Positions 1-29,404 of a stretch of 32,000 nt of DNA are shown piece after piece (position 1 is the first letter of the stretch; each line of letters starts with the position of its first letter). The DNA lies in the NCBI RefSeq assembly GCF_037902255.1, contig NZ_CP147990.1, positions 1,200,001 through 1,232,000 of the forward strand, read 5' to 3'. Origin of the DNA: Candidatus Electrothrix sp. GW3-4. Lineage in GTDB: Bacteria > Desulfobacterota > Desulfobulbia > Desulfobulbales > Desulfobulbaceae. The notes below the pieces were generated by a model. That model saw only the letters and a program-made list of their open reading frames with translations. It was not told the origin of the DNA and searched no databases. The translations under genes were made by a program, and so were the position numbers.

Positions 1-1803
1 ATTAAATTTCTTGAGGATCTTCGGAATAGCCGATTTTACTTCTATACCAACCAATGCTTGAATTCCTGCCTGCTGAACTGGTATATCGTCGTTTTGTTCG
101 AGCAGAGAGTCTATTATGTTGACAGCTTTTTTTGATCTCACCCAAGGCAGCTGCTTAAGCAAACGTATTATCTTCTTGCTTGGATCATGCTCCTCATGCT
201 CCAAAATTTTGTTTTTCAGCGTGTACCCTTCCTGGTATAGGCCATCCTGCATATAAAAAGCAAAACGATCCAGCATAGGCAGATGGTATATCAAGTCCTG
301 CCGAGTCTTCGTTGCATTATTAAGCATATGCTGATTGAATAATCTGTCCGCCTCAATCTCCTGACGGGAAAAAGATGTCTCGTACTGGAAGGTCCGTTGC
401 CCGAACAGATCCTTTTGGTCGATATCCCCTTGATACAGCTCAATTCTATCAGAAATGGATTTCTTCGGACTCAACTGGAGATAACGACCGAAATAGTTTG
501 TTTGAAACGTGTTACCTATGTATATGAGACTGACAATAGTCAGAACTGCAATACTTCCACAAGCCAGCCGCCTAAGCCGCTGCCTTGCCTTGAACCCCCG
601 ATTCCAGCTATCAATAGATTCCGAAAAAATATCATGATACAGCTCATACCAAAACTGCTCACCCCGCATCTGCCGCCGCAGAATCGCATAATCCTGCAAC
701 CTATCCAAAACCGGCTGCAACTCCTTCTCATCAACCCTGGCCAACTCAGCCAAGCGCTCCAAAGGATGGGCAATCTTGATCGCCCGCGTCCCCACCAGAT
801 GGTCAAAGGCTGCTGAGGCAAGGGCCTGCTCTTGTTTACTGAAGAGACCTATCTTGCCGAGAAAATACGAATTCAGTATCCCCGCTGTCCTTCCGGCTTT
901 TTCGTAGGCCGCATGAGTAATCTGCTTGAGCTGATCATCTCGATGCCCTTGCCATAATTCCCGACAGACAATCTGTAGATGCGGCGGTTCCACCAGCAGG
1001 GGTAACTCTTTTAACCTCATTAAATTCTGCACCCCGAACTGCCGTTCCTGTTCCCGCTTGGCCAGATCATCCAGCACCTGATCCAGTAGGGCCTCCTGAT
1101 CTTCTGTCTGCGGCGCAAAACAATAGCCCGTTGCTTTTAACGGCTCTTCAATGGCCAGGCGGGCCTGGTCTCGAGTCAGTTTTTCAAGGCGAAAGTAATT
1201 GTCAAATATACCAGGCAGGGTGTTTTTAAAGCTGTTCAGTTCCAGGGCAAAGTCTTCACGCATGGAAAAGACAAAGGAGGCCGCCAGATTGCGGTCAAGG
1301 ATTGCTGCACTCAGGTCTTCAAGAAAGGGCTGGAATTCAGGTCGAAAACGCTGGTAGTTGAAAAATTCTTCAAACTGGTCAAGGAGGAGCACCTGTTGGC
1401 CGGTGCTGAAGATGGTGCAGGCCCGCAGGCTCTCTTGAAGAGAGAGTTGAGCAAACTGTTTATCAAGCGCGGCTCCATTATATTTTTCCCGAAAATGGTT
1501 ACTGATGGTTTGGCGAAGGGCTGTTCCCGGATCCGTGGCCCAGTCGCGATGATAGATCAGCTCTGCATCCTCATCCCTATTCAGCACCGGCATAATCCCG
1601 GCCCGCAGCAGGGAACTCTTGCCCACACCGCTGCCAGCCAACAGCAGGGTCAGCCGGTTGGCGTGAATTTTGTCCAGGAGGATACTGATCTCCTGGTCAC
1701 GACCAAAGAAACGATCCTGTTCGTCTTCCCGGAAAGGGCGGAGGCCGATATAGGGCTCAAAGGCAGGGGAGGGCATCTCTGCTTTCTTTTTTGCTGAACT
1801 CAT
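1..1803 (-). CDS. STAND-type P-loop NTPase (nSTAND-like) with predicted TM helix and C-terminal HEAT-like repeats; C-terminus beyond window edge
   Basis: Not in the supplied ORF track because it is open at the window edge. My minus-strand translation from ATG at 1803 gives 601 uninterrupted codons down to nt 1: MSSAKKKAEMPSPAFEPYIGLRPFREDEQDRFFGRDQEISILLDKIHANRLTLLLAGSGVGKSSLLRAGIMP... Walker A GSGVGKSS lies at nt ~1612-1635; Walker B-like motif VLLLDQFEEFF. A hydrophobic helix LACGSIAVLTIVSLIYIG (nt ~514-567) follows RQRLRR. HEAT-like IPVQQAGIQALVGIEVKSAIPKIL lies near nt 1-80. The start overlaps the upstream stop (ATGA at 1800-1803). Confidence 0.8.
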   Translation of the reverse strand, partial: MSSAKKKAEMPSPAFEPYIGLRPFREDEQDRFFGRDQEISILLDKIHANRLTLLLAGSGVGKSSLLRAGIMPVLNRDEDAELIYHRDWATDPGTALRQTISNHFREKYNGAALDKQFAQLSLQESLRACTIFSTGQQVLLLDQFEEFFNYQRFRPEFQPFLEDLSAAILDRNLAASFVFSMREDFALELNSFKNTLPGIFDNYFRLEKLTRDQARLAIEEPLKATGYCFAPQTEDQEALLDQVLDDLAKREQERQFGVQNLMRLKELPLLVEPPHLQIVCRELWQGHRDDQLKQITHAAYEKAGRTAGILNSYFLGKIGLFSKQEQALASAAFDHLVGTRAIKIAHPLERLAELARVDEKELQPVLDRLQDYAILRRQMRGEQFWYELYHDIFSESIDSWNRGFKARQRLRRLACGSIAVLTIVSLIYIGNTFQTNYFGRYLQLSPKKSISDRIELYQGDIDQKDLFGQRTFQYETSFSRQEIEADRLFNQHMLNNATKTRQDLIYHLPMLDRFAFYMQDGLYQEGYTLKNKILEHEEHDPSKKIIRLLKQLPWVRSKKAVNIIDSLLEQNDDIPVQQAGIQALVGIEVKSAIPKILKKFN

Positions 1804-3332
1804 GATTCCATCTCCTGGGCAAGTTCCTGAACAAAGGTCCTGAGTGCAAGGTCAAAGGGCTGCACATGGTTGTCCTGCCAAAAGGCGTGGGCAAATGGGG
1901 AAATATCTTTCTGTACAGCAAGGGATACAGCGCGATGATCCCGCTGCATCTGGATGGATTTGACCAGCAAACGTTCTTCCCAGCTCTCTGGATAATGGCC
2001 CAGGAACCAGAGGGCACGGCTTTTCAGTTTGGTGCGAATATAGTCTGGAATCTGCTGCGTTGCCTGGTTGAAGTTAAGATAATCCCGTTCTGAGAGGAGC
2101 AGGGTTTCCCGATCCTGATCAATAAAGCCACCACGCAGCTTATAGATAACCGTATAGCCACGACTGAGGGGCTTTTGCCCGGAAAGCTCTTCCAGGGTAC
2201 AGGGCAGCGGCTCTTCATACTGATCAGAATAGCGAAGCAGGCATTTTTTCTCCCTGATGTTGGGATAGATCACCACAAAGGGTTTCCGATTTTTCAGACG
2301 CTGCTCCAGCAGGTCGTCATAGGCAGCAGAGATGATCAGGAGAGGGGGGGCAAGTCGGGCCAACAGCTCATAGAGGGCAAGAGGGGTTTGGGCATCCCCC
2401 CGAAGGAGAGCGCGAATCTTTTCCACCAGTTCATAGCGGCAGCAGCCTGGCAGGATTTCCTCCTGCTCGCAGAGCTCAGATAAGGGACCGTGAAATCCCT
2501 CCTCACGAACCAGGCGATGAATAAGTTCCTCTGTTGAGGGAACCGGAGCACCAAGGAGGTGGGAAAGTTCCTGGCCAAGGCAAAGGACAACCTGCCCTTT
2601 GTTGAGATTCTCTGCGAGTTTTGCATAGTCCGGTGTCGCCTCTGGACCTTCCTTACTACTGGCTAAGGTCTTAAAGAAAAGGACCAACTCTTCTTTTGTA
2701 AGGCGTTGTTCAATAAATCCCTCGATTTTGAGGAGGATTTCTTCATCAGCAGGGCCAATACCTTCTTTCTCCATCCGATCTAACTCAAGACCGATAGCCT
2801 GAATCACTTCAAGGAGTTCAAAAGCACGTTTGGAAAGCTCAGTTTTCGCGTGGTGAACACGGTTTGTACAGTTGACAACATCTCTCCCCTCGGCCTGTGC
2901 ATGAGCCTCCAATCGCAGCATCTCTTTTTCTAGCTTCCCCCGCTCATTTTTTTCCTGTCTGATTTCCTGTTCCAAGCGAAACATTTCTTCGTGACGGGTT
3001 TCCGCTATTTTCTGATTCTCTAAGAAAGAAAGCCTTTTACTATGCGACTCCCACTGCTTTTGCAGTTCTTTCATTTTGGCGGCAATAAATTGTTTCTGGA
3101 GCATAATCGAATATCGGAAAACGTGAATCTGTTGTTCTAACTCCTTAAAAAGCAGATCAAGATACTCTGTCTGGGGCCGCTGCCAGCATCTTTGCTGTTT
3201 CATGAACGGGGCTGCCGCACCGCGCATTTTCTTTATCAGCTGATAGAAAAACCGCAGTAATCCTGAGCTGTCTCGCCTGGGGGGCAGGCGCAAGCTATAT
3301 TTTTGACAGGAACGCATCCTTTTCGCAAGCAA
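1800..3332 (-). CDS. Coiled-coil protein with C-terminal degenerate SIR2-like (SIR2_2-type) domain
   Basis: 510-aa ORF in the track. The N-terminal ~100 aa are heptad/charged (KELQKQWESHSKRLSFLENQKIAETRHEEMFRLEQEIRQEKNERGKLEKEMLRLEAHAQ). The C-terminal half follows the order of SIR2_2 motifs: GQVVLCLGQELS, LLIISAAYDDLLEQ, YKLRGG..LLLSERDY, ALWFLGHYPESW. The expected GAG, TTN and H positions are substituted. Start uncertain (TTG 3332, ATG 3317 or an internal Met). Confidence 0.6.
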   Translation of the reverse strand: MLAKRMRSCQKYSLRLPPRRDSSGLLRFFYQLIKKMRGAAAPFMKQQRCWQRPQTEYLDLLFKELEQQIHVFRYSIMLQKQFIAAKMKELQKQWESHSKRLSFLENQKIAETRHEEMFRLEQEIRQEKNERGKLEKEMLRLEAHAQAEGRDVVNCTNRVHHAKTELSKRAFELLEVIQAIGLELDRMEKEGIGPADEEILLKIEGFIEQRLTKEELVLFFKTLASSKEGPEATPDYAKLAENLNKGQVVLCLGQELSHLLGAPVPSTEELIHRLVREEGFHGPLSELCEQEEILPGCCRYELVEKIRALLRGDAQTPLALYELLARLAPPLLIISAAYDDLLEQRLKNRKPFVVIYPNIREKKCLLRYSDQYEEPLPCTLEELSGQKPLSRGYTVIYKLRGGFIDQDRETLLLSERDYLNFNQATQQIPDYIRTKLKSRALWFLGHYPESWEERLLVKSIQMQRDHRAVSLAVQKDISPFAHAFWQDNHVQPFDLALRTFVQELAQEMES

Positions 3333-3430
3333 AAAAAGGAATTACTCTATCCGAAAGCTTCCAGGTCTCTCTGGTCACTTTTTCCTGCACATTTTGCCAA
3401 CGCACTCTCACCTCCCGCCCTTTATCGTCT

Positions 3431-3472
3431 GCATCAGAGCGCGCTCTGATTCTGTCCTGTGATACCGAGATG
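3431..3472. promoter_or_regulatory. Copy 1 of a 42-bp repeated element containing an 18-bp perfect palindrome ATCAGAGCGCGCTCTGAT
   Basis: gcatcagagcgcgctctgattctgtcctgtgataccgagatg; palindrome at 3433-3450. It lies in the divergent intergenic region between the SIR2-like operon (minus) and the hemerythrin-like gene (plus), about 100 nt upstream of 3573. Matches 38/42 to 4303-4344. Confidence 0.55.
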
Positions 3473-3572
3473 AATAGCAGTATTTCTTTTTTTGTTTACT
3501 TTCTTGAATAATTTTGGATAATAAATATGGGTGCTGAAGGAATAAAAGGAAGTATAGTGGAAGGATGAAAGA

Positions 3573-4034
3573 GTGGATAAGTTATCACGAGAAGTTTTTG
3601 AACATGGCAAGGTGTTGGAAGAATTGTATTTTTTTGACAATTATACCAAGGTGTTCTCGCGTGTATCTTGTGAGGATTATCTTGAGAAAATCAATACGTT
3701 TTTAGATGAATTTGTCATTGAACATTTTGAATTTGAAGAGAAGGAGATATTTCCTTTTATACTTGAGAAGTGCAACCGATACTATGAAGAGAAAATGATA
3801 CAAGAGTTGCGAGATGAACACCTTATAATATTGGAGCATGTTGCTGAGTTTAAAGCCCAAATAAAACCTCTTACATCACGGCTCAATAGTGAGATTTTTT
3901 GTAAAATTTTATTATTAAGTCAGCCGCTGAGGAGAGAGATAATGAGTCATGCCCGAAAAGAAGATGAGCAATTACTTCCTGCTATAAAAAAATACCTTGT
4001 ATCGTTCAATTGTAGTAATTCAGAGTTGATCTGA
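3573..4034 (+). CDS. Hemerythrin-like (HHE cation-binding) domain protein
   Basis: 153-aa ORF with GTG start preceded by GGAAGGA. Three H/E motifs typical of hemerythrin-like domains: FEHGKVLEEL, EHFEFEEKEIFPFI plus LRDEHLIILEHV, and MSHARKEDEQLLPAI. AT-rich relative to flanks. Confidence 0.55.
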   Translation: MDKLSREVFEHGKVLEELYFFDNYTKVFSRVSCEDYLEKINTFLDEFVIEHFEFEEKEIFPFILEKCNRYYEEKMIQELRDEHLIILEHVAEFKAQIKPLTSRLNSEIFCKILLLSQPLRREIMSHARKEDEQLLPAIKKYLVSFNCSNSELI

Positions 4035-4302
4035 TAGGATGTGTATGGGTGGCCTTTCATTAAGGGCCTCATCAAAAGGTCGTTCTGATTGCGGAAGGCC
4101 TTTTGGGGCACATCCTTGGGCGTGTATTCTGCACGTTACCCGGTTTTTCTTTGTCCAGCCTTTGATGGTTTCGTAAAAAGTCCAATTTTGCGAAAAATTG
4201 TATTGTAACTCGTTGAGTTGCCGTTAGCGAATTACTGTTTTCTGACTTTTTACCAGGCCATCAGCCTTTGGGATTCGAATCTGTAACCCCATCCTGTACC
4301 TC

Positions 4303-4344
4303 GCATCAGAGCGCGCTCTGATTTTGCCCTGTGATATCGATATG
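4303..4344. promoter_or_regulatory. Copy 2 of the 42-bp palindrome-containing element
   Basis: gcatcagagcgcgctctgattttgccctgtgatatcgatatg; palindrome at 4305-4322. Lies about 150 nt upstream of the kinase ATG at 4494. Confidence 0.55.
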
Positions 4345-4493
4345 GGCACATTTCATTCTCGCAAGAGTAGTTTCATGTTTACTTTTTAATTCAACATAAT
4401 TAAACTTTCCTGTTCTGACAGGACAATGACGCTGCTTTTCATGTCTGCCCGCCTCCTACTGATCTATATTTGTATATTTCGGAGAAAATTATC

Positions 4494-6569
4494 ATGAAGC
4501 CGACGTATTCAGAGCTTGAACTGAAAATGAAAGAACTTGAGCAGCAGGTTGCTGGCCTGAAAGGCATGGTTACGGCCCAGCGCAAGAGAGCGGAAAAATA
4601 TCGATCTTTTTCTGAAGCGGGCTTTGAAGCAATATTTATTAATGATAACGGTATGCTGAAAGACGCAAATAACCGGTATTTTGATATGTTTGGCTATGAA
4701 CCTGTCGAATTGCTCAACAAACAGGTAATTCCTCTGACCATTGCTCCTGAATTTTATGAACAGCTCCTGAAAAGGGTGCATTCGGGATACACTGAACCGT
4801 ATCAGGTTGTTGGCATACGAAAGGACGGTTCCCGCTTTCCTATAGAGATTCAGGCAAAGCAGGTAAGATATGAGGGGAGCAAGCTGCGGGTAGCTGCGAT
4901 TAGAGATATTTCAGAAAGAAAAAGAGCCGAAGATGTCCTTTGGGAGAGCGAGGAAAAATACAGAAAACTTTTCTCGACAATACATAGCGGGGTTATGATT
5001 ATTGATGAGCAGACTCGTGATATCATAGACGTCAATGTAGCGGCCCTGTATACCTATGGCTACAGCAGGGAAGAATTTCTGTCTTTAAAATATATTGATA
5101 TCACCGCTGAACAGGAGGACTCCGAAGAGGCCATACAACAACTCCTGGCCGGAGAACGGCAATATTTCCCCCTTCGCTACCATCGCAAAAAAGATGGGAC
5201 AAAATTCCCGGTGGAGATCTTTGCGACGTCTTTTTCTCTTCAGGGCCGAAGGGTGTTATGCGGAATTTTCCATGATATTAGCGTCCGAAAGAAGGCGGAA
5301 CAGGCGCTGATCTCTGCCAAAGAAGCAGCTGAAGCAGCCAACAGGGCAAAAAGTGAATTCCTGGCCAACATGAGTCATGAGCTTCGGACACCGATGAATG
5401 CTATTCTCGGCATGAATCGCCTTGCCTTGAAGACGGGGTTGACCAAAGAGCAGGGCAATTATCTTGCAACCGTTGAGGAGGCAGGCGAATCGCTTCTTAA
5501 AATCATTGATAATGTGCTTGATTTTTCCAAAATTGAGGCTGGTCAACTGGCCATGGAAGAGCGAGCATTTAACCTGCGGGAAATCAGCACGTTTCTTCAG
5601 GACCGTTTTGCCTTGAAGGTACGGGAAAAGGGACTGAGCCTGACGTGCAGGCTCCCTGCCGATGTTCCGGTTGCTCTCCTCGGGGATGAGACCCGACTGC
5701 GCCAGGTTCTTGTTCATCTTGTCGAAAACGCGATAAAATTCACTGAGACGGGCGGGGTCTCGATCCTGGTGGAACAAGTGCAGAACAATGAGGAGGCAAT
5801 ATGTCTGCGATTCGCGGTTAGCGACACGGGTCCTGGCATAGCAGAGGGAGATCAGGAGCAGATATTCAATAATTTTACCCAGGCCGACTCCAGTATGACA
5901 AGGATGTATGGAGGAACAGGGCTTGGCCTTGCTCTCTGCAAAAAACTGACCTTGTTGATGGGAGGAAAGATTTGGCTCGAAAGTCGGTATGGTCAGGGCG
6001 CTACCTTCTCTTTTACTGCGAATTTTAAAAAAGAACCTGAAGGTACAGGGAACAGGGGGCTTGTTGCTCAACGAAAGACACGAGTAAACGGGAAGCTGTC
6101 TGTCCTCCAGATATTACTGGTGGAAGATAACCCCTTTAACCGGGATCTTGCTCGGATAGTCCTTGAAAAGAAAGGAAATAGGGTGACCACGGCGACGACG
6201 GGCTTGGAGGCCCTGGAGTTGATGACCCGACAATCTTTTGGCGCGATACTGATGGATATCCAAATGCCAGAGATGGACGGGATTACGGCAACGAAACTCA
6301 TTAGATTATGCGAAAAGCAAAAGAACGTTGCCGTTAGAGAACACAACGAGCTGATCAGACGGATAAATAATAAAATATATGGAACGCATACACCGATAAT
6401 TGCCATGACGGCGCATGCAATGTCGGGAGATAAATATTTATGTGTTCAGGCCGGGATGGATGAATATCTCACCAAGCCTTTCCGGCCTGAGGAGGTCTTT
6501 ACTGCTCTGAGAGATGTGACCGCGCGCAGTACCGTGGATGTCAGGAGGAGCCCGCGTGGCTATAGTTGA
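4494..6569 (+). CDS. Hybrid sensor histidine kinase (coiled coil, 2 x PAS, HisKA, HATPase_c, C-terminal receiver)
   Basis: The track ORF begins at 4470 (TTG), but ATG 4494 has GGAG 8 nt upstream (MKPTYSELELKMKELEQQ). H-box SHELRTPMNAILG; ATPase motifs DTGPGI and GGTGLGLALC; receiver ILLVEDNPFNR...ILMDIQMPEMDG...LTKPF. Two PAS-like segments (RKDGSRFPIEI and KKDGTKFPVEI). Confidence 0.9.
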   Translation: MKPTYSELELKMKELEQQVAGLKGMVTAQRKRAEKYRSFSEAGFEAIFINDNGMLKDANNRYFDMFGYEPVELLNKQVIPLTIAPEFYEQLLKRVHSGYTEPYQVVGIRKDGSRFPIEIQAKQVRYEGSKLRVAAIRDISERKRAEDVLWESEEKYRKLFSTIHSGVMIIDEQTRDIIDVNVAALYTYGYSREEFLSLKYIDITAEQEDSEEAIQQLLAGERQYFPLRYHRKKDGTKFPVEIFATSFSLQGRRVLCGIFHDISVRKKAEQALISAKEAAEAANRAKSEFLANMSHELRTPMNAILGMNRLALKTGLTKEQGNYLATVEEAGESLLKIIDNVLDFSKIEAGQLAMEERAFNLREISTFLQDRFALKVREKGLSLTCRLPADVPVALLGDETRLRQVLVHLVENAIKFTETGGVSILVEQVQNNEEAICLRFAVSDTGPGIAEGDQEQIFNNFTQADSSMTRMYGGTGLGLALCKKLTLLMGGKIWLESRYGQGATFSFTANFKKEPEGTGNRGLVAQRKTRVNGKLSVLQILLVEDNPFNRDLARIVLEKKGNRVTTATTGLEALELMTRQSFGAILMDIQMPEMDGITATKLIRLCEKQKNVAVREHNELIRRINNKIYGTHTPIIAMTAHAMSGDKYLCVQAGMDEYLTKPFRPEEVFTALRDVTARSTVDVRRSPRGYS

Positions 6570-8801: not shown

Positions 8802-10208
8802 TTACCCCTTGCGTAAGCCAAACACTCCGTGCTTTTCACTGCTAAAGGCCGGGTTATTGCCTCTTCTCCCTCCGCGTCGTGGTTTGTCTGCGGTTGTATT
8901 ATTCGCTGCTGCTGCGGGGAGGGGCTGTGCCCCTGAAGCAGCTCTTGGCGTCTCTTCAATAAATTGATTGAGATCAGTTAATACCTCTCCCTCAATGGCC
9001 TCTTTATACAAGGCGTAAAAACGGGAGCAGTCAGGGAAATAGCTTTTTTTCCGCAACCAGGCTGGCCAATTGTCATTTTTGCGGTTCTTTTCCAAGGAGG
9101 ACATGTTCACGAACAGGGTCGTCATTTTGTCCTTGATAGCCCGTTTCAGATTAAGGCGGCGGGCAAAAAACTGGTCCAGCTCGCCTCTGATTGCTTTGGA
9201 GAGGCGGTGATATCCAGGCCCCTTGAGTTCCTGGTTGAGCAGGTCAAAACGGCGCAGCGCCCAGGGAAAGAGCAGGAAAGCAAAGAGCATGGCATCTTCG
9301 AGAAGCACACGGCCTTTTTCTTTACCCTGGCAATAGACCGTATCAAGGGCGCCGAGTATAGCCAGTAATTCCCCTTGAACGGCCTTTCCCTGTGTTTCGT
9401 CGTTGCACAGCTCGTTGTAAAAGGGAAACAGGGCGGAAAAGACACCGGTCTGAAGAGCCAGTTTTGCCCAGGCCTTACTGGCACCGCCACGCAGGTCCTT
9501 GAGTAACTCATCTCTTACCCTGGAGGTGGGACAGAGGTCAAGCTTGTCCACATGTTTTCTGATGGCTTCCAGGGTCTTTTCCTCAATGGCAAAGCCATTA
9601 CGGGCAGCGTGGCGGATGGCCCGGAGTATGCGGACCGGGTCCCGAATGATTCGTTGCTCAGGCTCACCAACAATGCGGATAATCCCGTCGGTCAGGTCCT
9701 GGACACCACCGACATAGTCAATAACCGTTTTGTTCTCAATTTCATAAAAGAGCGAGTTGATGGTCAGGTCGCGGCGGAAGGCATCCTCTTCCAAGGTGCC
9801 AAAGGTGTTGTTTGTTGGCAGCACCTTATCCGGTTCATCACTATCGAACTCACTTTGCGAGCGCAGGGTGGAGACTTCGATAATTTTATTGCCCCGGAAA
9901 AAGACCTGTACTAAACGAAAACGCCTGCCTATGGTTCTGGAGTTGCGGAATAGTTTGCGGAGCTGACCTGGTCGGGCATTGGTCGATATATCAAAATCTT
10001 TTGGCTTGTTGCCAAGGTAGAGGTCGCGTACGCCCCCGCCAACCAGGTATCCTGAATAGCCCGCATCCCGTAACCGATAGAGAACCTTGAGGGCCTCGGA
10101 TTCAATATCCTTTTCAAGGATGGGATGGTCTTCCGGGGACAAAACAACGCCTTGGTTCCCTTTGCTTGCCTTCGTCAGTTGCGAATCATTTTCAGTGGTG
10201 CTGTTCAT
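8802..10208 (-). CDS. pcnB: Poly(A) polymerase I (tRNA nucleotidyltransferase superfamily)
   Basis: 468-aa ORF. GGGVRDLYLGNKPKDFDISTNARPGQLRKLFRNSRTIGRRFRLVQV closely follows the PcnB head-domain signature. Basic C-terminal tail. Confidence 0.8.
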   Translation of the reverse strand: MNSTTENDSQLTKASKGNQGVVLSPEDHPILEKDIESEALKVLYRLRDAGYSGYLVGGGVRDLYLGNKPKDFDISTNARPGQLRKLFRNSRTIGRRFRLVQVFFRGNKIIEVSTLRSQSEFDSDEPDKVLPTNNTFGTLEEDAFRRDLTINSLFYEIENKTVIDYVGGVQDLTDGIIRIVGEPEQRIIRDPVRILRAIRHAARNGFAIEEKTLEAIRKHVDKLDLCPTSRVRDELLKDLRGGASKAWAKLALQTGVFSALFPFYNELCNDETQGKAVQGELLAILGALDTVYCQGKEKGRVLLEDAMLFAFLLFPWALRRFDLLNQELKGPGYHRLSKAIRGELDQFFARRLNLKRAIKDKMTTLFVNMSSLEKNRKNDNWPAWLRKKSYFPDCSRFYALYKEAIEGEVLTDLNQFIEETPRAASGAQPLPAAAANNTTADKPRRGGRRGNNPAFSSEKHGVFGLRKG

Positions 10209-10404
10209 GGTTGCATACTGGTCTCAAATATCTTTATCACAGAGGTAGACTCTGATCTCTCGGAGGTAACTGGCCTTCTGTACCTTGCGCTGGCCGTCCT
10301 GTTTGCTGGCAGACTTACCTGCTGCATAATGGCAAGGCAAGGAGAGGAAGGGGGGATGCATTCTCACCTGGTCAGGCGGTCTCTGCGCTTCCTTTTTTCT
10401 ACGG

Positions 10405-18877: not shown

Positions 18878-20407
18878 ATGCAAAAGCTACCCATAGGTAT
18901 TCAAACCTTCACCAAAATCCGTGAAGAAGAATACCACTACGTCGATAAAACAAAAATTGCCTTTGAGCTGATCAACAACGGTAACTACTATTTTCTCTCC
19001 AGACCACGCCGCTTCGGCAAGAGCCTTTTTCTCTCCACCTTACAGGCTGTGTTCGAGGGCCGGAAAGAGCTGTTTCACGGCCTGTATATCTCTGACATCT
19101 GGGATTGGCAGACAACCTATCCGGTCGTCAAAATCAGTTTTGCCGGAGTGGCCCGCAATGTTGCTGCCATGCAGCAGGATATCAGGAATATCCTCAAGGA
19201 TAACCAAGAGCGCCTGAACATTGACTGCCTGCACGAAGAAGATACAGGCGGGTGCTTGCGGGAGTTGATCAGGAAGTCATTTGAGAAATATCAGCAGAAA
19301 GTTGTTATCCTTGTGGATGAGTACGACAAGCTGATCCTTGATAATTTGGATCAGCTGGAGGTCGCGCAGGAGGCAAGGGAAATCCTCAAAGACCTGTACG
19401 CAACCATCAAGGACTGCGACGAGTATATCAAATTCGCCTTTTTTACCGGCGTCAGTAAATTTGCCAAGGTCTCTGTGTTCAGCGGCCTGAACAACCTTTC
19501 GGATATCTCCCTTGACAGCCGTTACGCCACGATCTGCGGCTATACCCAGGATGATCTGGTAACCGTTTTTGCCGACCTCCTGCGAGACGCTGATATGGAA
19601 CGGGTGCGGGACTGGTACAACGGCTATAATTTTCTCGGAGAAAAAGTTTATAATCCCTTTGATATCCTGCTCTTCATCGATAAGGGACTCATTTTTAATA
19701 ATTATTGGTTCGAGACCGGCACGCCGACCTTTTTACTGAAGCTTATCCGGCAGAACAATTATTTCCTCCCCCGTCTTTCCGACCTGCGGGTTGACAGCTC
19801 TCTGCTCGACGGTTTTGATATCGACCATATCAGGCTGGAACCTGTCCTGTTTCAGGCCGGTTATCTGACGATCAAAGAAGTTCATGAATTGGAGTTCGGA
19901 GGGTTTGAATATACCCTGCACTATCCGAACCGGGAGGTCGCTCTTTCTTTTAATGACGCGCTTATCCGCTTTCTGACGGACGCGACAACATACACGCCCA
20001 CCAAGACCGGCCTGTTTTCCGCTTTAAAATCCGGGGATGTCGAAGCATTGAAAGATGTGCTTGTTTCCCTGTTCGCCTCGATTCCCTATAATAATTATGT
20101 CAAAAACACCCTTGCCGAGTATGAGGGCTACTATGCCAGTGTGATTTATGCCTATCTCGCAAGCCTAGGTATCCGCATCATTGCAGAGGATGTGACCAAT
20201 ATCGGGCGTATTGACTTAACGCTTTTTCTGGGTGATAACATATATATTGTCGAATTTAAAGTTGATGGCAATGCTGATCCCCTTGAGCAGATTAAAGAAC
20301 GAAAGTATGCGCAGAAGTACGCAGGTCAGGGGACTGTGTATTTGGTTGGTATTCTCTTCAGTAGTACAAAGAAGAATATTGAGACGTTTTCTTGGGAAAG
20401 GGTATGA
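18878..20407 (+). CDS. AAA-ATPase_like N-terminal domain / PD-(D/E)XK (PDDEXK_9-type) C-terminal domain protein
   Basis: 509-aa ORF. Characteristic N-terminus MQKLPIGIQTFTKIREEEYHYVDKTKIAFELINNGNYYFLSRPRRFGKSLFLSTL. Walker B-like VILVDEYDK. C-terminal nuclease-like GRIDLTLFLGDNIYIVEFK. Confidence 0.8.
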   Translation: MQKLPIGIQTFTKIREEEYHYVDKTKIAFELINNGNYYFLSRPRRFGKSLFLSTLQAVFEGRKELFHGLYISDIWDWQTTYPVVKISFAGVARNVAAMQQDIRNILKDNQERLNIDCLHEEDTGGCLRELIRKSFEKYQQKVVILVDEYDKLILDNLDQLEVAQEAREILKDLYATIKDCDEYIKFAFFTGVSKFAKVSVFSGLNNLSDISLDSRYATICGYTQDDLVTVFADLLRDADMERVRDWYNGYNFLGEKVYNPFDILLFIDKGLIFNNYWFETGTPTFLLKLIRQNNYFLPRLSDLRVDSSLLDGFDIDHIRLEPVLFQAGYLTIKEVHELEFGGFEYTLHYPNREVALSFNDALIRFLTDATTYTPTKTGLFSALKSGDVEALKDVLVSLFASIPYNNYVKNTLAEYEGYYASVIYAYLASLGIRIIAEDVTNIGRIDLTLFLGDNIYIVEFKVDGNADPLEQIKERKYAQKYAGQGTVYLVGILFSSTKKNIETFSWERV

Positions 20408-21194: not shown

Positions 21195-22460
21195 ATGGCA
21201 CTCAATAGTAAAAACTGGGTAATTTCTATAGGAGTTAATGATTCAAGAGATCATGAAAGCCTAAAGTGTCCGCATTTTGATGCTGGAGATGTGTTTAGTA
21301 TCATATCTAAAAATTGGAAATGTGATTCACAAAATAAAATATTATTAACAGGGAATCAAGCTACAACAAAAAATATTAATATCATTCTTAATGAGGTATT
21401 AATGAGAATGGCAGATGAAAATGATCGTATATTTATTTATCTGTCTGGACATGTTAATACGAATGTACGCTCAGTTACCGGTTCTTTTGTGAGCTATGAT
21501 TATTGTAAAGAAAAACGGAATTTTGGGCTGAATTTACGGTCATTAAGGTACATTGTCGAAGACTCAAGAGCCAAATATATTATAGTAGTAATAGACGGAT
21601 GTTCTTCAGGTGTAATCGCACAAGGAAATAAAAATAATACACCGCATTGGTTTTATTTCACTACAGGTGAAATGGATTCAGAGGCAAGTACAAAGCTTTT
21701 TATTACAGCAGTTTCCTCTGGAAAACATGCTTATGAACACGAAGATAAAAGAAACTCTGAGTTCACAAGAATACTGGTAGATACGATATCTCCTTTTATA
21801 AAAAGAAAAGAGAGTCTCAGTACGACCCTATTTTATGAATTTTTAGTTAAAAAATCGAAGAAATATAATATGTATCCTGTAAAATCTGGAGTGGAAATTG
21901 GATACACTAATTTTATTGAAAGCAATCATCAGGATAATGTTATATTGTCAGATGATAATAAACCTTATATCCCGAAATGGATAGAAGGTCTTTTTGATAA
22001 TTGTAAAAACAATAGTACTGTTAATAACAAAGATAAGTCTGTTTTCGTAAGAGATAATAACTTTGCAGATGGTTCAAGGTTAACAATCGGACAGATAATA
22101 AAAAAATCTTGGCGCATTCGTAATGCAGGTAATGTTAGTTGGAAAAGTCGTTTTTTGAAAATGATTGGGCAATCCAGAGGAACTGGACGTATTCATTGCA
22201 ATAATATAATTCCAATACCTGATGCTGAACCGAACCAAGAGATTGATATTGAGATTGAATTAAGAATGCCACCTTATCCATGTTCAGTATATGCAGAATT
22301 CAAAATGACAGATTCATCTGGAAATATTTTATTTCCAAACCAAAGAGGACTTTATGTAACTTTTGACGTTATTGATCCAGCTAGCCAGAATGAGTACGTT
22401 TTATCTTCTTCAGATAGAGAACTCGTGAGTCGCGAGTTTTCACTTCGCTTTAAAATATAA
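21195..22460 (+). CDS. Caspase-like (peptidase C14 fold) protease with C-terminal NBR1-type Ig (FW) domain
   Basis: 421-aa ORF. WVISIGVNDS, catalytic-His context FIYLSGHV (His86, nt 21450-21452), catalytic-Cys context IIVVIDGCSSG (Cys136). The C-terminal ~120 aa match the N_BRCA1_IG/NBR1 FW pattern: FVRDNNFADGSRLTIGQIIKKSWRIRNAGNVSW...PNQEIDIEIELRMPPYPCSVYAEFKMTDSSGNILFPNQRGLYVTFDVI. Confidence 0.75.
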   Translation: MALNSKNWVISIGVNDSRDHESLKCPHFDAGDVFSIISKNWKCDSQNKILLTGNQATTKNINIILNEVLMRMADENDRIFIYLSGHVNTNVRSVTGSFVSYDYCKEKRNFGLNLRSLRYIVEDSRAKYIIVVIDGCSSGVIAQGNKNNTPHWFYFTTGEMDSEASTKLFITAVSSGKHAYEHEDKRNSEFTRILVDTISPFIKRKESLSTTLFYEFLVKKSKKYNMYPVKSGVEIGYTNFIESNHQDNVILSDDNKPYIPKWIEGLFDNCKNNSTVNNKDKSVFVRDNNFADGSRLTIGQIIKKSWRIRNAGNVSWKSRFLKMIGQSRGTGRIHCNNIIPIPDAEPNQEIDIEIELRMPPYPCSVYAEFKMTDSSGNILFPNQRGLYVTFDVIDPASQNEYVLSSSDRELVSREFSLRFKI

Positions 22461-22554: not shown

Positions 22555-23980
22555 GAGTTTGTATGCTCACATATCTATATGACTCACTATACGGTTTTCG
22601 TAAAGTATTTTCCCGTCACCGCACCTGGTTAATCTTTGTGATGATAGTTTTGGGGTTCATCGGTAGCAGCGAAATGACAGGAGTTTCTTCCTTCTGCCGT
22701 TTTTGGCTGATAGACAATCAAGGGTACTCTAAGTTACTGGGACTTTTTCGTTCTTCAGCCTGGGAATTAAGTGGCTTGCTGGAATACTGGTCTGTTTTTG
22801 CTGTCTACCAACAACAGTCTGTTTTTTCGCAAGGTCGACTGGTTACACTGGGAGACCATACATATGTCCCCAAGGAAGGTCGCCGAATGCCCGGTGTTGT
22901 AACTTTACGCCAAGACTCTGAAACACAAAGCAAACCCTCGTATTTCAGAGGTCAGTGCTGGGGAGGCCTGGCTTTGGCCGTTGGCAGTTTGACAAATCCT
23001 TTGGCCATTGATTTTGCTCTTCAAACGAACCAGGGTGTTCTCTTGGTTCTGGATGCTTTTTTTTCTGTAGGTCCGGTGTTTCTGCTGGCCCAGGCAACCT
23101 GGCTGACGTCAATTGAAGCTCCTGCTGTTCATATTATTACAAAGGCAAAGAAGAATTATGTCGCATACTTACAGGCAGATCCATCTCGTTACATTGGGAT
23201 CGGTCGTCCCTGTAAGTATGGAGAGCATATTCATCTGATGGAAGTTTTTGACCATCTCCACCTGTTTCAAAAAGTATCGGTCCGTATCTACGGACATATG
23301 GAGAAAATTTATATTTTCCACCTGGATTTATTATGGAAATCTACTCAAGGGCCGCTTCGTTTTGTTTTTGCCAAAACGTCACGTGGCCCCATTGTTCTTA
23401 TGTGCAGTAACCTCGACCAGGACCCGATTGCTGCAATCGAACTCTATTGTCTCAGAACCCGCATAGAAACCATGTTCGATATGCTGAAAAATGTTCTCCA
23501 TATCTTCCAATGTCACTTCTGGTCGAAAAAAATGCCGAAACATTCGAGGAAACCCAAAAGCAATAAAAATCAAAAGGCTCCACAGGCAGAAAACCAAAAA
23601 ACGGTTCAAGCTTGCTGGGATGCTACTGAACGTTTTGTTAACCTTGGAGCAATTTCCCTTGGTTTGCTTCAGTTAATCGCCCTCAAATTTCCAGAAGAAA
23701 TATGGAGCAGATTTGAAGGATTCTTGCGGACCCGTTCTCGGGATATTCCTTCTGAAAGAACTGTTAAAATGGTGATTGCAAATTTGTTGGTACAGAATTT
23801 TCTCAAAGTCGAGCCAACAGCGACAATGCGAGAAATTCGTGCCAAAATTCTCAAGGGCGAATTCAAGAAAAAATTTCCTCAAACTGAACACCCCGTTAAT
23901 CAACGGGCAGCTTGAAAATTCATAGTCTTAAGCAAAATTGATTGATACGGCTGTTTCATCATGTGGAGCAGTACAAACTC
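22555..23980 (+). mobile_element. IS4-superfamily insertion sequence (about 1.43 kb)
   Basis: Imperfect terminal inverted repeats: gagtttgtatgctcacat (22555-22572) versus the reverse complement of 23961-23980, gagtttgtactgctccacat (18 matches, two 1-nt indels). Single transposase ORF inside. Composition differs from the AT-rich DNA on both sides. No target-site duplication identified. Confidence 0.6.
22563..23915 (+). CDS. DDE transposase, IS4-like (YREK signature)
   Basis: 450-aa ORF. LGDHTYVPKEG (D1), LVLDAFF (D2), YCLRTRIETMFDMLK, which fits Y-x2-R-x3-E-x6-K exactly. Confidence 0.85.
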   Translation: MLTYLYDSLYGFRKVFSRHRTWLIFVMIVLGFIGSSEMTGVSSFCRFWLIDNQGYSKLLGLFRSSAWELSGLLEYWSVFAVYQQQSVFSQGRLVTLGDHTYVPKEGRRMPGVVTLRQDSETQSKPSYFRGQCWGGLALAVGSLTNPLAIDFALQTNQGVLLVLDAFFSVGPVFLLAQATWLTSIEAPAVHIITKAKKNYVAYLQADPSRYIGIGRPCKYGEHIHLMEVFDHLHLFQKVSVRIYGHMEKIYIFHLDLLWKSTQGPLRFVFAKTSRGPIVLMCSNLDQDPIAAIELYCLRTRIETMFDMLKNVLHIFQCHFWSKKMPKHSRKPKSNKNQKAPQAENQKTVQACWDATERFVNLGAISLGLLQLIALKFPEEIWSRFEGFLRTRSRDIPSERTVKMVIANLLVQNFLKVEPTATMREIRAKILKGEFKKKFPQTEHPVNQRAA

Positions 23981-25359: not shown

Positions 25360-28300
25360 GTGAAAAATATAAAGATTTTTGTGGGAGCAACTCTGCTCTT
25401 TATTATTGTGCTGTTTGGTATCACGGTTGCGATAATTCCCCTTCTTCTTTCCTCAGACTGGGCAAAGAACAGTGTTGTCAGCAAGGTAAACAGCAGCTCT
25501 TCTGGTAAGCTTGCCCTTGGCGATTGTGCGATCGGCTGGAGTGAGGGGCTCAAGTGTACAGAGGTTTCCTACCATGATCAGGGCTATCAGGTTGATGCCG
25601 CCCACCTAACCGGGACCCAGGGCCTGTTTTCCCTGCTCATGGCGCCCAAGAATCTTGGGACCATTACGGTAGATGACCCTGTGGTGGTTATCGCCCAGCC
25701 CCAAGCGAAGCCTGGCAGCGAAGACGAGACGCTTGCTGCGCAAACCGATTCCAGAACTCCTGCAAAAACAGAGGACCACGCTAAGGAAACATCAAACTCC
25801 GAAAAAGAAACAGGAAAACCCGGAACTTGGTTCTGGCATAAGATGAGGGGTAAAATACTCCTGAATCGAGCTATTGTTAAATTGCAACAGGGAGCGCAGG
25901 AGCCGCAAATGCTGGTGCAGGAAGGGGCTTTGGATCTGACCCTTGCCTCTGACACCCTTAAGCTGAACCTTGTCTTGGCAACCGGGGCAGAACAGACTGG
26001 AGGAGAGGTCAAGGCCGTGGGAACTGCTCATTTACCTTCGGTGAAAGGTGATCTGCTGGATCTCATGACCGCTGACATGCAGGTGACCTTTACCGATGTT
26101 CAACTCGCTCCCTTCCTGGCCCTGGCCCCTGCTGAGGGCAGTGTCCCGCAAGGGCAGGCAATTCTGGCCTCTGAATTGACCGTCAAGAATACCGAGGGCG
26201 GTAACCTGGTGTTGCGTGGTCCGATCACCCTGGAGAAGGTTGATCTGACCGGTGGTTTTCTGGCAGAGGATCATCCCCGGCTTGACCAACTGGCCTTTGA
26301 ACTGCATATCCAACGGGATGAACAAAAGGAGTGGCGGCTGCCTGAGCTGAAAATGCTTTCCGATTTTGGCAGCGTGGGGCTTCAGTCCAGCTACGGTAAA
26401 CAGGGATTGCAGGCCACAGGCGAGGGCAAGTTTGATTTGCCGGTCCTCCTTACCCAGTTGCCCGGCCTGTTCAAGGTCCAGGAGAACCTGCGGCTGGAGA
26501 ACGGGAGAGCCTCGTTAGCCTTTGAGGTGGCAGAGAAAGACAAGGTGATGCAGCTTAGTGCCGAGGCCACGGTTGAGGACCTGGAAGGTCGACAAAATCG
26601 ACAGCCCTTTGTCTGGAAGAGTCCGCTGCGCCTGAGTCTGAAGGGCAGTATGGCAGGCAAAGAACCTGAGGTGGACAGGCTTGCCCTTCAGGCCGACTTT
26701 CTGGATATAGAAGGGCAGGGGAATCTGCACCATTTTACCCTTAAGGGCACGGCAGACCTGGACCAGGCCATGCAGGAGATCTCTCGCATCATCCAGTTTG
26801 ACTGGGATGTTGGAGGACGCCTGAAGTTGGATCTGGAGACAACAAAGGATAGCGAGGAGCGTTATACCGTTGATGCCAAGGTTGATATTGCCGATTACCG
26901 GCTCTCTATGAAAAATAAGGAGGTGCTGCCGGTTCATCAGTTTCGTTTTAACGGCAAGCTGGTCGCACCTGGCTATTTTCCCAAGGCAAAGGCAGAGGCT
27001 GCCGATCTGACCTTTGATCTGTCTTCCTGGGCTGGCGATCTTACAGGCGCCCTGAGCGGCGTGTATCGGGACCAGGGGCAGGTCATGGCCCATTATCAGC
27101 TGGATGCAGACATCCTGTTAGCCCGGGTGACGGAATTGCTCCACCGTTTTGACGCCTTGGAGCAAGAAACCAGCATGGCCGGAGATATGAAGTTGCAGAC
27201 CACCGGTTATACAGAAAAAGACCGGCTGGTGGTCAGTACCTTGGATTCACGGATCAAGGGATTTATCCTCTATCGCCAGGGAAAGATCTTGCAGGATCCA
27301 GAGCTCTCGTTGTTTACCACCAAACCTGAGCCAACACCCAATGTGGAAGAAGCGGTACGAGCATTGGAAAAGGCGGAGAGTAAGGATGCCTTTTTTGCCC
27401 AGGGGGGCTATAACCTGATTGATACCAAGAATCATCGCCTGGTGCTGCGTAATTTATCCCTGAACTCCGGCTTTGCGGATATCAGGGTCGAAAAGATCTT
27501 TCTTGATGACTGGCAGCAGAAACCAGCGCCCGCCATCAAGGCCCTACAGGTCAATGGCAGATCTGATCTTGCCAAGCTGACCACCCTGTTGCAGCAACTG
27601 GGCGCAATGCAGCCGGAACAGAAGTTCGCTGGTGATGCGATCTTCTCCCTTGATTTGGCAGAGAGAAAGGAAGATATCAAGATCGCAGGATCAACAAGCA
27701 GGGGTAACTCTGGTACTGTCAAGCTCGATATTGATCACTTCTCCTACAGTAAAATCGGGAAAAAGGTTCGAGGGAAAAAGGGCCAGGAAGAGCTCCTTAT
27801 TGAGCGGCAGAAATTGGTTTTCAGGAGTCGCCTCCATGGTGACCTTACGGCCGGTGATGTGCAGTTTACCACCTTTGATATTGAATCTGCCCCGCTGAGC
27901 CTCCAGGCCGATGGCGAATTTCAATTGAGCGGGAAAAAACCGCATTTTTCTCTGGATGGGCAGGCAACGCCTGATTTGGCCTCCTTAGTGGCTATCCTGA
28001 ACGGGATGTATCCTCTTGGCATCGAGGCAACCGGGAAAAAGAAGGAGAAATTTACCCTATATTATCCTCTCGCCCCAGAGGAGAAAGAAAACGCCAAGAT
28101 CAATCTACGCTTTGCAACAAAGGTCTATGCAGATTCCTTTTCCAGATCCGGCATTGATGTGAGCAGGCTCACCTTGGACACGGATATGAAGCAAGGGGTG
28201 ATGGACAGTGTGCTGAAAGGGACCCTGAATGACGGTTGGTTGCAGCTTTCCCCTCGCATTGATTATACGCAAACCCCACCCCTCCTCACGATGGCAGAGG

Positions 28301-28938
28301 GCGAACAGGTGTTAACAGATGTGCATCTTGAAGAGGCCCTGACTGAGGGTATTCTTAAAGGGATTCACCCCGTCTTTGGCTCATTGGCTACCCCCGCAGG
28401 AATTATCAATGTCCGGTTGGACCGCTTCTCTCTCCCCCTTGAAGAAAAAGGGATGGAAAAAATCGATTTTAAGGTCTTCCTTGATTTGACCGGCGTGGCC
28501 TTGGAGCCTAAGGGCGTCCTGAGTAGTATCCTGGAGGTGGCAGGCTACGTGGACAGCACGCTGACCATGAAGAATAAAAGCATGACCTGTGAAGGCGTGC
28601 AGGGGCAGGTCAGCTGTACACCGATCAAGATGATCATTGCTGATTCGGAAATGATCATCAGCGGCTCTGCTGGAATGGACGGCAGCCTGGAGTATATTGT
28701 CGAGGTCCCGGTGACCAAAAGGTTACTGGGAAAAAAAGGCTATGAGTTACTTAAAGGCACCACCCTGAAGGTCCCGATTAAAGGCACTAAGGATAAGCCC
28801 GTATATAGCCGTGATGCCCTGATGCGGGCATCGTCGGACCTGCTCAAGCAGGCAGCGGGCCAGGCGACCAAAAATGTTTTGAGAGAGCAGGTTGATAAGG
28901 TTGTTCCTGATCTCCTGGATAACCTTTTTGGAAAATAA
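25360..28938 (+). CDS. AsmA-family / TamB-like large envelope protein
   Basis: 1192-aa ORF. GTG start 8 nt after GGAG. N-terminal anchor KIFVGATLLFIIVLFGITVAIIPLLL. Long, repetitive, beta-rich body. C-terminal LKVPIKGTKDKPVYSRDAL typical of AsmA-like C-termini. Confidence 0.65.
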   Translation: MKNIKIFVGATLLFIIVLFGITVAIIPLLLSSDWAKNSVVSKVNSSSSGKLALGDCAIGWSEGLKCTEVSYHDQGYQVDAAHLTGTQGLFSLLMAPKNLGTITVDDPVVVIAQPQAKPGSEDETLAAQTDSRTPAKTEDHAKETSNSEKETGKPGTWFWHKMRGKILLNRAIVKLQQGAQEPQMLVQEGALDLTLASDTLKLNLVLATGAEQTGGEVKAVGTAHLPSVKGDLLDLMTADMQVTFTDVQLAPFLALAPAEGSVPQGQAILASELTVKNTEGGNLVLRGPITLEKVDLTGGFLAEDHPRLDQLAFELHIQRDEQKEWRLPELKMLSDFGSVGLQSSYGKQGLQATGEGKFDLPVLLTQLPGLFKVQENLRLENGRASLAFEVAEKDKVMQLSAEATVEDLEGRQNRQPFVWKSPLRLSLKGSMAGKEPEVDRLALQADFLDIEGQGNLHHFTLKGTADLDQAMQEISRIIQFDWDVGGRLKLDLETTKDSEERYTVDAKVDIADYRLSMKNKEVLPVHQFRFNGKLVAPGYFPKAKAEAADLTFDLSSWAGDLTGALSGVYRDQGQVMAHYQLDADILLARVTELLHRFDALEQETSMAGDMKLQTTGYTEKDRLVVSTLDSRIKGFILYRQGKILQDPELSLFTTKPEPTPNVEEAVRALEKAESKDAFFAQGGYNLIDTKNHRLVLRNLSLNSGFADIRVEKIFLDDWQQKPAPAIKALQVNGRSDLAKLTTLLQQLGAMQPEQKFAGDAIFSLDLAERKEDIKIAGSTSRGNSGTVKLDIDHFSYSKIGKKVRGKKGQEELLIERQKLVFRSRLHGDLTAGDVQFTTFDIESAPLSLQADGEFQLSGKKPHFSLDGQATPDLASLVAILNGMYPLGIEATGKKKEKFTLYYPLAPEEKENAKINLRFATKVYADSFSRSGIDVSRLTLDTDMKQGVMDSVLKGTLNDGWLQLSPRIDYTQTPPLLTMAEGEQVLTDVHLEEALTEGILKGIHPVFGSLATPAGIINVRLDRFSLPLEEKGMEKIDFKVFLDLTGVALEPKGVLSSILEVAGYVDSTLTMKNKSMTCEGVQGQVSCTPIKMIIADSEMIISGSAGMDGSLEYIVEVPVTKRLLGKKGYELLKGTTLKVPIKGTKDKPVYSRDALMRASSDLLKQAAGQATKNVLREQVDKVVPDLLDNLFGK

Positions 28939-28967: not shown

Positions 28968-29354
28968 ATGGATACCCTACTCAGGCTTTCCCTCATCGGT
29001 GCTGGTGGTTTCACCGGAGCTGTCCTCCGTTTTCTGGTCAGCTCCTGGGCACAAGGACGTTCCGGTTCGATAATTTTTCCCTTCGGCACCCTGACCGTGA
29101 ATATGGTCGGGTGTCTGCTGATAGGATTTCTCAGTGCGTTGGTCGAAATCAGGGCCATGTTTTCTCCTGAGACCCGGAGCTTTGTCCTTATTGGCCTGCT
29201 GGGTGCTTTCACCACCTTTTCCACCTTTGGCAACGAGACCCTGAACCTGATCCGGGAAAGCCGAATTGAGCTGGCCCTCCTTAATGCAGGAGGACAGGTG
29301 CTTCTCGGGGTGTTGCTGGTGTGGTTAGGACGGGTTCTTGCGGGCTTGCTTTGA
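28968..29354 (+). CDS. crcB: Fluoride ion channel CrcB/FluC
   Basis: 128-aa ORF with four hydrophobic helices. GAGGFTGAVLRF, FPFGTLTVNMVGCLLIG, GAFTTFSTF. Confidence 0.9.
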   Translation: MDTLLRLSLIGAGGFTGAVLRFLVSSWAQGRSGSIIFPFGTLTVNMVGCLLIGFLSALVEIRAMFSPETRSFVLIGLLGAFTTFSTFGNETLNLIRESRIELALLNAGGQVLLGVLLVWLGRVLAGLL

Positions 29355-29404
29355 AGCAGATTGAAAAAAAACAAAAAAGAGTAATTGGGAAGAGGCAAGA
29401 CATT

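Follow-up and report, generated by a model that had tools for sequence, protein, structure and literature searches.

A catalytically degenerate SIR2 fold paired with an nSTAND1 NTPase in a cable bacterium: a candidate pseudoenzyme adaptor of an NLR-like conflict system

We analyzed a 32,000-nucleotide (nt) stretch of the genome of the cable bacterium Candidatus Electrothrix sp. GW3-4 (contig NZ_CP147990.1, positions 1,200,001 to 1,232,000), hereafter the window, in which two overlapping minus-strand genes encode a protein with a SIR2 fold (gene 1) and a nucleoside triphosphatase (NTPase) of the nSTAND1 clade (gene 2). The SIR2 fold has lost the residues that define the SIR2 active site, and it belongs to a constant module that carries interchangeable N-terminal domains. 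We consider it probable that the pair is the core of an NTP-driven conflict system of filamentous multicellular bacteria, resembling the nucleotide-binding leucine-rich repeat receptors (NLRs) of eukaryotes, and that the gene 1 protein is its output-side pseudoenzyme adaptor. Such a conflict system would probably act against phage or through abortive infection.

A first-pass annotation had proposed a SIR2_2 fold for the C-terminal half of the gene 1 protein, and this assignment was borne out. Pfam matched SIR2_2 (PF13289) at residues 332-492 of the long open reading frame (ORF) with an E-value of 3.7e-12 (score 47 bits, cutoff 24.5), and the C-terminal 265 amino acids (aa) constitute the domain. 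An AlphaFold2 (AF2) model built from 31 homologues had a mean predicted local distance difference test (pLDDT) score of 87. Comparison of this model with solved structures by Foldseek gave KomC, ThsA, DSR2 and Avs5 as the top matches, with a probability of 1.00 and E-values down to 9e-9; the KomC match had a template modeling score of 0.71 on the target, and the Avs5 matches were to filament chains of 9nc9. A search of the PDB with the single sequence returned only a coiled-coil artefact, and a family profile was required for the alignment with KomC. None of these results indicated a non-SIR2 fold.

As references for the active site we used the catalytic His (H152 of ThsA, H146 of KomC and H171 of DSR2) and the Asn of the TTNYD motif (N112 of ThsA). 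Three motifs previously described as replaced are indeed present in the sequence, and when the family profile was aligned with KomC residue by residue they fell on the expected catalytic and NAD positions, with GQELS on GAGVS, AAYD on TNYD and KLRG on KFH146G. Within the glycine loop, GQVVLCLGQELS, the G-Q-E is encoded at 2576-2568 and its Q-E lies on the A-G of KomC. ISAAYDD has an Ala at the Asn position (2324-2322), and KLRGG has an Arg (2135-2133) aligned to the catalytic H146. Because all three defining features of the active site fail, the protein should not be filed as an NADase; judged from its sequence, its SIR2 fold would no longer hydrolyze NAD.

Loss of the catalytic residues is family-wide, as not one of 104 family representatives has the Asn and the His together. 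The His position is occupied by Arg in 70 of them, Cys in 16, Leu in 6, Asn in 3, Lys in 2 and Trp in 2, with His in a single sequence. The Asn position is Ala (33), Ser (20), Gly (17), Cys (12) or Thr (9), and Asn in only four. At the second Gly of the NAD loop, Asp or Glu is found in 71 representatives and Gly in 15. Since residue identity at the His position varies across the family, a substitute catalytic residue is unlikely.

The SIR2 fold does not stand alone. In the alignment of homologues (alignment A1), a C-terminal block of ~355 aa, consisting of a helical bundle of ~90 aa followed by the SIR2 fold, is conserved from about column 380 on in all architectures, and the N-termini ahead of it are unrelated. 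A Pfam census of 88 representatives identified N-terminal CHAT (16), Trypsin_2 (10), TIR_2 (7) and caspase (6) domains. The effector-associated domains (EADs) EAD7 (5), EAD2 (3) and EAD8 (1) were rarer, as were SEFIR, DUF4062 and others, each found singly. A constant C-terminal module with exchangeable N-termini is the pattern of an effector carrier or adaptor rather than of an effector. The first-pass annotation had left three roles for the dead SIR2 side by side, those of adaptor, sensor and divergent active site; as the constant module usually has a protease or TIR N-terminus, we favor the adaptor over the other two. The module is widespread, a search of a 50%-identity library having given 2,367 hits, with 162 clusters at E<=1e-30, and its source organisms are filamentous bacteria (Electrothrix, Electronema, Thiothrix, Beggiatoa, Thioploca, Thiolinea and Moduliflexus).

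These data also bear on the possibility that the protein is a divergent enzyme that cleaves NAD+ or modifies a substrate through other residues, such as E372, R411 or the Arg at the His position. Such an enzyme would fit the invariance of this Arg and of the following Gly among the closest 31 sequences, as well as several polar residues among the nearly invariant positions of the module (G203, G210, D296, G358, E372, P386, Y388, W408, R411 and W442). However, the wider family has Cys, Leu, Asn, Lys or Trp instead of the Arg, and E372 and R411 are not new catalytic inventions, being ancestral to SIR2_2 and present in KomC (LDETSY and IRLL). Moreover, KomC H146N and DSR2 H171A, both altered at this His, are the inactive mutants that were used for solved structures according to PDB entry titles, and most family members already bear a separate enzymatic effector. 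We therefore regard a divergent enzyme as highly unlikely.

The coupling of gene 1 to a STAND NTPase gene, noted in the first-pass annotation, was also confirmed. The junction reads ggaatcATGAgtt, in which the gene 1 TGA (1802-1800) overlaps the gene 2 ATG (1803-1801). The gene 2 protein matched nSTAND1 (PF20703) at residues 17-393 with an E-value of 1.9e-45, and its Walker A (GSGVGKSS) and Walker B (LLLDQFEE) motifs are both intact. The NTPase is the first domain of this protein, which contains no adaptor domain. Co-location with STAND NTPases extends beyond this genome: of the 14 distinct loci found via the SIR2-like protein, 13 have an nSTAND1 homologue downstream of the module gene on the same strand, and in the 14th the contig ends 36 nt after the module gene. 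When loci were sampled via the NTPase, the module was upstream in three of four, one of these (L020) being frameshifted. A 4-nt overlap is common to nine distinct loci (among relatives L001, L006/7, L009, L013, L014, L015, L016 and L019), and the overlap in the Ca. Electrothrix aestuarii locus (L017) is 1 nt, TAATG. SIR2_2 was fused to the NTPase in none of the 120 closest nSTAND1 homologues, so that the arrangement in separate genes, to which attention had been drawn before, differs from that of Avs5.

Several of these loci have features of their own. In L020 (Candidatus Moduliflexus flocculans) the dead-SIR2 module is encoded by an uncalled 1060-codon ORF (2674-5856) upstream of nSTAND1; the gene appears frameshifted, with the C-terminal part of the module in ORF 5558-5797. 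In L002 two small genes (9776-10277), one for an Unstab_antitox-type antitoxin, separate the trypsin-dead-SIR2 gene from the nSTAND1 gene, PIN/VapB-type pairs flank several loci (L001, L002 and L019), and L019 has additional separate Trypco1 and trypsin genes.

Gene 1 might instead be a non-functional remnant, an ancestral SIR2 effector gene decaying beside the NTPase gene, as could be suspected from its lost catalytic residues and from the frameshift in L020. The reading frame is intact, though, the protein is 55-82% conserved between Electrothrix species, the family comprises the many clusters described above with 15 nearly invariant columns in its alignment, and the start/stop overlap with the NTPase gene is conserved as well. 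Conservation of this kind effectively refutes the remnant explanation.

The window edge cuts gene 2 at residue 601, and for parts beyond it we used L017, the complete orthologous locus closest to the window. A hydrophobic segment, the predicted transmembrane (TM) helix, follows a Lys/Arg cluster at the same alignment position (~400-435) in 11 of the 11 NTPase homologues compared. The placement of this cluster ahead of the helix predicts a cytoplasmic NTPase with the C-terminal repeats outside the membrane. After the helix, the orthologues in L001, L014 and L017 have HEAT repeats, and the Thiothrix and Thiolinea relatives have an FGE/C-type-lectin domain in place of HEAT, beside bAvd and reverse transcriptase genes. 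These two genes, a diversity-generating retroelement (DGR), directly follow the nSTAND1-FGE gene in L016 (11111-12543) and L019 (8187-9645). In L017 (10001-14250) the receptor consists of two separate proteins, nSTAND1-TM with 497 aa and HEAT with 899 aa; the window gene is open past residue 601. The flanking genes of L017 differ from those of the window, so that the genomic context of the module is not the same in these two Electrothrix species.

With the NTPase in place, a further explanation can be weighed, namely that the gene 1 protein is a ligand-sensing pseudoenzyme whose pocket binds NAD+, ADP-ribose or a TIR-made signal of the cyclic ADP-ribose type without turnover and thereby gates the NTPase or the effector allosterically. 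In favor of this are the conserved Rossmann core, G203/G210, Y295-D296 and E372, and the fact that some family members carry TIR domains or have TIR partners that could make such ligands. Nonetheless, the acidic residue that most representatives have in place of the diphosphate-binding Gly should repel a pyrophosphate, and the freedom with which the His position (R/C/L) and the Asn position (A/S/G/C/T) vary is unlike a preserved ligand site. In addition, the same module serves proteases, which make no nucleotide signal, and the NTPase already bears a dedicated sensor (HEAT or FGE, at times beside a DGR). On balance we think ligand sensing unlikely.

The N-terminus of the window protein is of a different kind. 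The first-pass annotation had placed a coiled coil of roughly 100 aa ahead of the SIR2 domain. The region is helical, as proposed, but it actually comprises a conserved hairpin of ~70 aa with an ETR turn, and then the ~90-aa bundle that is part of the constant module. Alignment A5 showed an invariant E35-T-R37..E40..R43 at the hairpin turn, and in the AF2 model ETR marks precisely the break between two long helices. At least 20 family members begin with the hairpin, which matches no Pfam model, EAD models included. A search of 5.8 billion proteins with a hairpin profile gave no significant match, the domain being too short for a database of that size.

We also looked for hairpin copies by a local hidden Markov model search of the fetched loci. 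In L006/L007 the hairpin occurs on the dead-SIR2 protein and on a separate protein of 238 aa (hairpin E-value 4e-17), where it is N-terminal to a weakly TIR-like C-terminus (TIR_2 E-value 1.4e-3, below the Pfam cutoff). In L016 it occurs on the dead-SIR2 protein and at the C-terminus of a 231-aa TIR protein (hairpin E-value 4e-12; TIR_2 E-value 3e-13). Two copies of one small domain per operon are the signature of coupling through effector-associated domains (Kaur et al. 2020, PMC7159879).

Our model of the system is as follows. The gene 2 protein would be both receptor and switch, with a cytoplasmic nSTAND1 NTPase, one TM helix and an extracytoplasmic repeat sensor, which would be HEAT in Electrothrix and FGE/C-type-lectin next to a DGR in the Thiothrix/Thiolinea relatives. 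The gene 1 protein would be the output adaptor, its helical bundle and dead SIR2 serving as a constant module for docking on the NTPase and for oligomerization. Once the NTPase oligomerizes, the dead-SIR2 modules would be clustered, and their clustering would activate the N-terminal element by proximity; in most relatives this element is a TIR domain or a protease of the trypsin, CHAT or caspase type. In the window protein the ETR hairpin would instead recruit, by homotypic pairing, a separately encoded effector with the same hairpin; the recruited partner in two related operons (L006/L007 and L016) would be the TIR protein. There is a reported precedent in Avs2, in which STAND-driven assembly is described as activating a trypsin-like domain.

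Plant NLR systems use catalytically dead copies of targeted enzymes as decoys. By analogy, the dead SIR2 could be an integrated decoy that mimics active SIR2 effectors and baits phage anti-SIR2 inhibitors, with inhibitor binding triggering the NTPase. Phage proteins that bind defense SIR2 proteins do exist, an example from PDB entry titles being DSAD1 on DSR2. In the family studied here, however, the effector sits on the dead-SIR2 protein and not on the NTPase, which puts the module on the output side, and the system has its own variable sensor, predicted to be outside the membrane. A mimic should also preserve the enzyme's surface and its pocket, and this pocket is degraded. We consider a decoy function highly unlikely. 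Ligand binding, divergent catalysis, decoy function and decay are thus all less well supported than the adaptor function.

The adaptor model may be extended. The solved relatives matched by our model were deposited as helical or filament assemblies, as their PDB entry titles state, and ThsA and FAM118 are reported to be activated by forming filaments; retained self-assembly of the dead SIR2 is therefore plausible. Tentatively, and as a possibility rather than an expectation, we suggest that the dead SIR2 has kept head-to-tail filament formation and has been exapted as a polymerizing platform for signal amplification, a bacterial counterpart of ASC/CARD or TIR cooperative assembly. Recognition by the extracytoplasmic HEAT or lectin sensor, sometimes hypermutated, would then be relayed across the membrane to a cytoplasmic filament that activates the attached or recruited protease or TIR. 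As for the origin of such a platform, an Avs5-like SIR2-STAND ancestor may have been split in two and inactivated.

Several points weigh against the adaptor function. Both Gly of the beta1 loop region, Y295, D296 and E372 are ancestral pocket residues that the family retains, which would make ligand binding possible. That the two proteins bind each other and that the dead SIR2 oligomerizes is what we infer. No effector with the ETR hairpin was found in the window itself (30 kb), whose operon continues past the window edge, or around the E. aestuarii orthologue in L017, the hairpin being present as a single copy in each case; a hairpin-bearing partner of the window protein is thus a prediction and not an observation. 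The nSTAND1 relative in L018 has no SIR2-like neighbor, and so the NTPase can exist without one. Finally, neither protein matched a model of PADLOC-DB v2 (best E-values of 0.33 for the SIR2-like protein and 0.0047 for the NTPase, the latter a partial match to mad8). NCBIfam likewise gave no informative match for either protein.

The extent of gene 1 required revision. The first-pass annotation had given it as 1800-3332, which is a minus-strand ORF of 510 codons from TTG 3332 to the TGA at 1802-1800. The database entry P0001, a 'SIR2 family protein' of Ca. Electrothrix sp. GW3-4 that is 100% identical to the gene 1 protein, has its annotated start at ATG 3203 (467 aa). The ORF stands, but the true start is probably ATG 3104-3102, giving a protein of 434 aa, rather than TTG 3332 or ATG 3203. 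This start is preferred because in the E. aestuarii orthologue (L017) the first start past an in-frame stop gives MLRKQF..., which aligns with MLQKQF... of the window, and because the ETR motif is at residue 35 in 14 of 20 homologues, matching its position in the gene 1 protein if translation starts at ATG 3104. The first ~40 residues of the 467-aa AF2 model are its only poorly predicted part (pLDDT 42-63). We found no convincing ribosome-binding site for any of the candidate starts, AAGGAG at 3146-3141 standing 37 nt from ATG 3104, and a promoter and terminator scan of positions 1-3700 remained at background and was of no help in choosing among them. The coordinates of the features are compiled in Table 1.

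Table 1. Features of the gene pair in the window
Feature	Coordinates	Strand	Basis
nSTAND1 NTPase gene (gene 2), first 601 codons, cut by window edge	1..1803	minus	Translation, Pfam
Predicted single TM helix of the NTPase, residues ~412-431, RLACGSIAVLTIVSLIYIGN	511..570	minus	Alignment of homologues
ATGA stop/start overlap of gene 1 and gene 2	1800..1803	minus	Sequence
Gene 1 (hairpin, helical bundle and dead-SIR2 protein), probable start	1800..3104	minus	Sequence; start from homologues
SIR2_2 (SIRim-type) Rossmann domain without catalytic Asn, His and second Gly of NAD loop	1803..2597	minus	Pfam, Foldseek, KomC alignment
Family-specific helical bundle (~90 aa) ahead of the SIR2 fold	2601..2870	minus	Alignment A1; AF2 helices 112-201 of the 467-aa model, pLDDT 84-93
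N-terminal helical hairpin (~70 aa), candidate homotypic (EAD-like) adaptor	2895..3104	minus	Alignment A5, AF2 model

Other genes of the window, all on the plus strand, were noted in passing. At 21195-22460 a 421-aa protein has a weak caspase-like N-terminus (PADLOC 'caspase', E-value 2.7e-12; NCBIfam 'caspase, EACC1-associated type', E-value 2e-12, below the cutoff) and an immunoglobulin-like N_BRCA1_IG domain, and it could belong to a further conflict system. The GC content around its gene is low (0.31-0.42 over 20-25 kb). The gene adjoins a 450-aa ORF (22563-23915) with a partial match to IS701-family transposases (E-value 2.4e-29, below the cutoff), which suggests a mobile or island-like segment. 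A type II restriction-modification pair occupies 29321-31965, where the gene for an Eco57I-type adenine methyltransferase (PADLOC MTase_II, E-value 8e-114) overlaps the REase_II gene (E-value 1e-104) by 4 nt. Just upstream, a 1192-aa ORF (25360-28938) matched nothing in Pfam, NCBIfam or PADLOC. The protein encoded at 18878-20407 combines AAA-ATPase_like and PDDEXK_9 domains and is a predicted ATPase-nuclease fusion.

If our model is correct, the gene 1 protein would be a clear bacterial case of an immune effector enzyme turned into a pseudoenzyme adaptor, a principle that is familiar in eukaryotic immunity from pseudokinases and death-fold adaptors and is hardly documented in prokaryotic defense. 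The model would give a function to the genes marked only with '?' that precede nSTAND1+TM genes in published neighborhood tables, and it would connect a single receptor type with protease, TIR and EAD outputs, with the ETR hairpin as a candidate new small adaptor. It would also mean that 'SIR2 family protein' labels and SIR2-based defense predictions cannot be read as NAD depletion. As sensing is predicted to take place outside the cytoplasm and cable-bacterium cells share a periplasm, the system would be a candidate filament-level alarm.

Among known systems, Avs5 (AVAST type 5) likewise combines a SIR2 fold with a STAND NTPase, whose C-terminal sensor repeats have a counterpart in the HEAT repeats seen in orthologues of the window system, and the gene order in the window mirrors the domain order of Avs5. 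In Avs5, however, the SIR2 is active, fused to the NTPase and itself the effector, whereas the window system has a separate SIR2 without Asn, His or GAG that carries other effectors or adaptors, and an NTPase of the nSTAND1 clade with a TM helix. The SIR2_2/SIRim NADases KomC, ThsA and DSR2 share with the gene 1 protein the fold and detectable sequence homology, and their domains act via higher-order assembly. The NAD pocket is retained in these NADases together with the catalytic Asn and His, two residues that are conserved across sirtuins and sirims (preprint 10.1101/2024.09.18.613514), whereas these were lost throughout the family of the window protein. Thoeris, which consists of ThsA (SIR2-SLOG) and ThsB (TIR), resembles those relatives in which SIR2-fold and TIR proteins are encoded together. 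It differs in that the window system has no SLOG/Macro sensor by Pfam, NCBIfam and PADLOC scans, a SIR2 that is inactive by sequence, and a STAND NTPase; the logic of Thoeris is a signal followed by an NADase, and that of the window system would be adaptor coupling.

The DGR-diversified nSTAND1/NACHT-CLec antigen sensors (Dore et al. 2024, PMC10907252, in which SIR2 is not mentioned) find their likeness in L016 and L019, where nSTAND1-FGE is followed by bAvd and reverse transcriptase. The orthologues of the window system differ from them in having a HEAT-type sensor, and no DGR was seen in the window. nSTAND1 itself was defined by Kaur et al. 2021 (PMC8195603), whose supplement lists the 'nSTAND1+TM' architecture 412 times and contains no Trypsin+SIR2, CASPASE+SIR2 or TIR+SIR2 architecture; SIR2 is not mentioned in the main text of Kaur, Burroughs, Iyer and Aravind 2020 (PMC7159879). 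Identity of the constant module with the published 'EACC1' component was considered and rejected, since EACC1, which is paired with caspases, is a single transmembrane-helix domain. We found no earlier description of the dead-SIR2 variant in the literature, where we looked for inactive SIR2 in connection with STAND, CHAT, trypsin and cable bacteria. Thematically, the window pair belongs with the NTP-dependent conflict systems of multicellular bacteria that are coupled through EADs (PMC7159879, PMC8195603). These also join a constant core to variable trypsin, caspase/CHAT and TIR effectors in filamentous bacteria, and further likenesses are the Trypco1 beside trypsin, the EAD2, EAD7 and EAD8 on some family members, and the single adaptor domain on two operon proteins (L006/L007 and L016). 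What sets the system described here apart from them is that its constant effector-bearing module is a dead SIR2.

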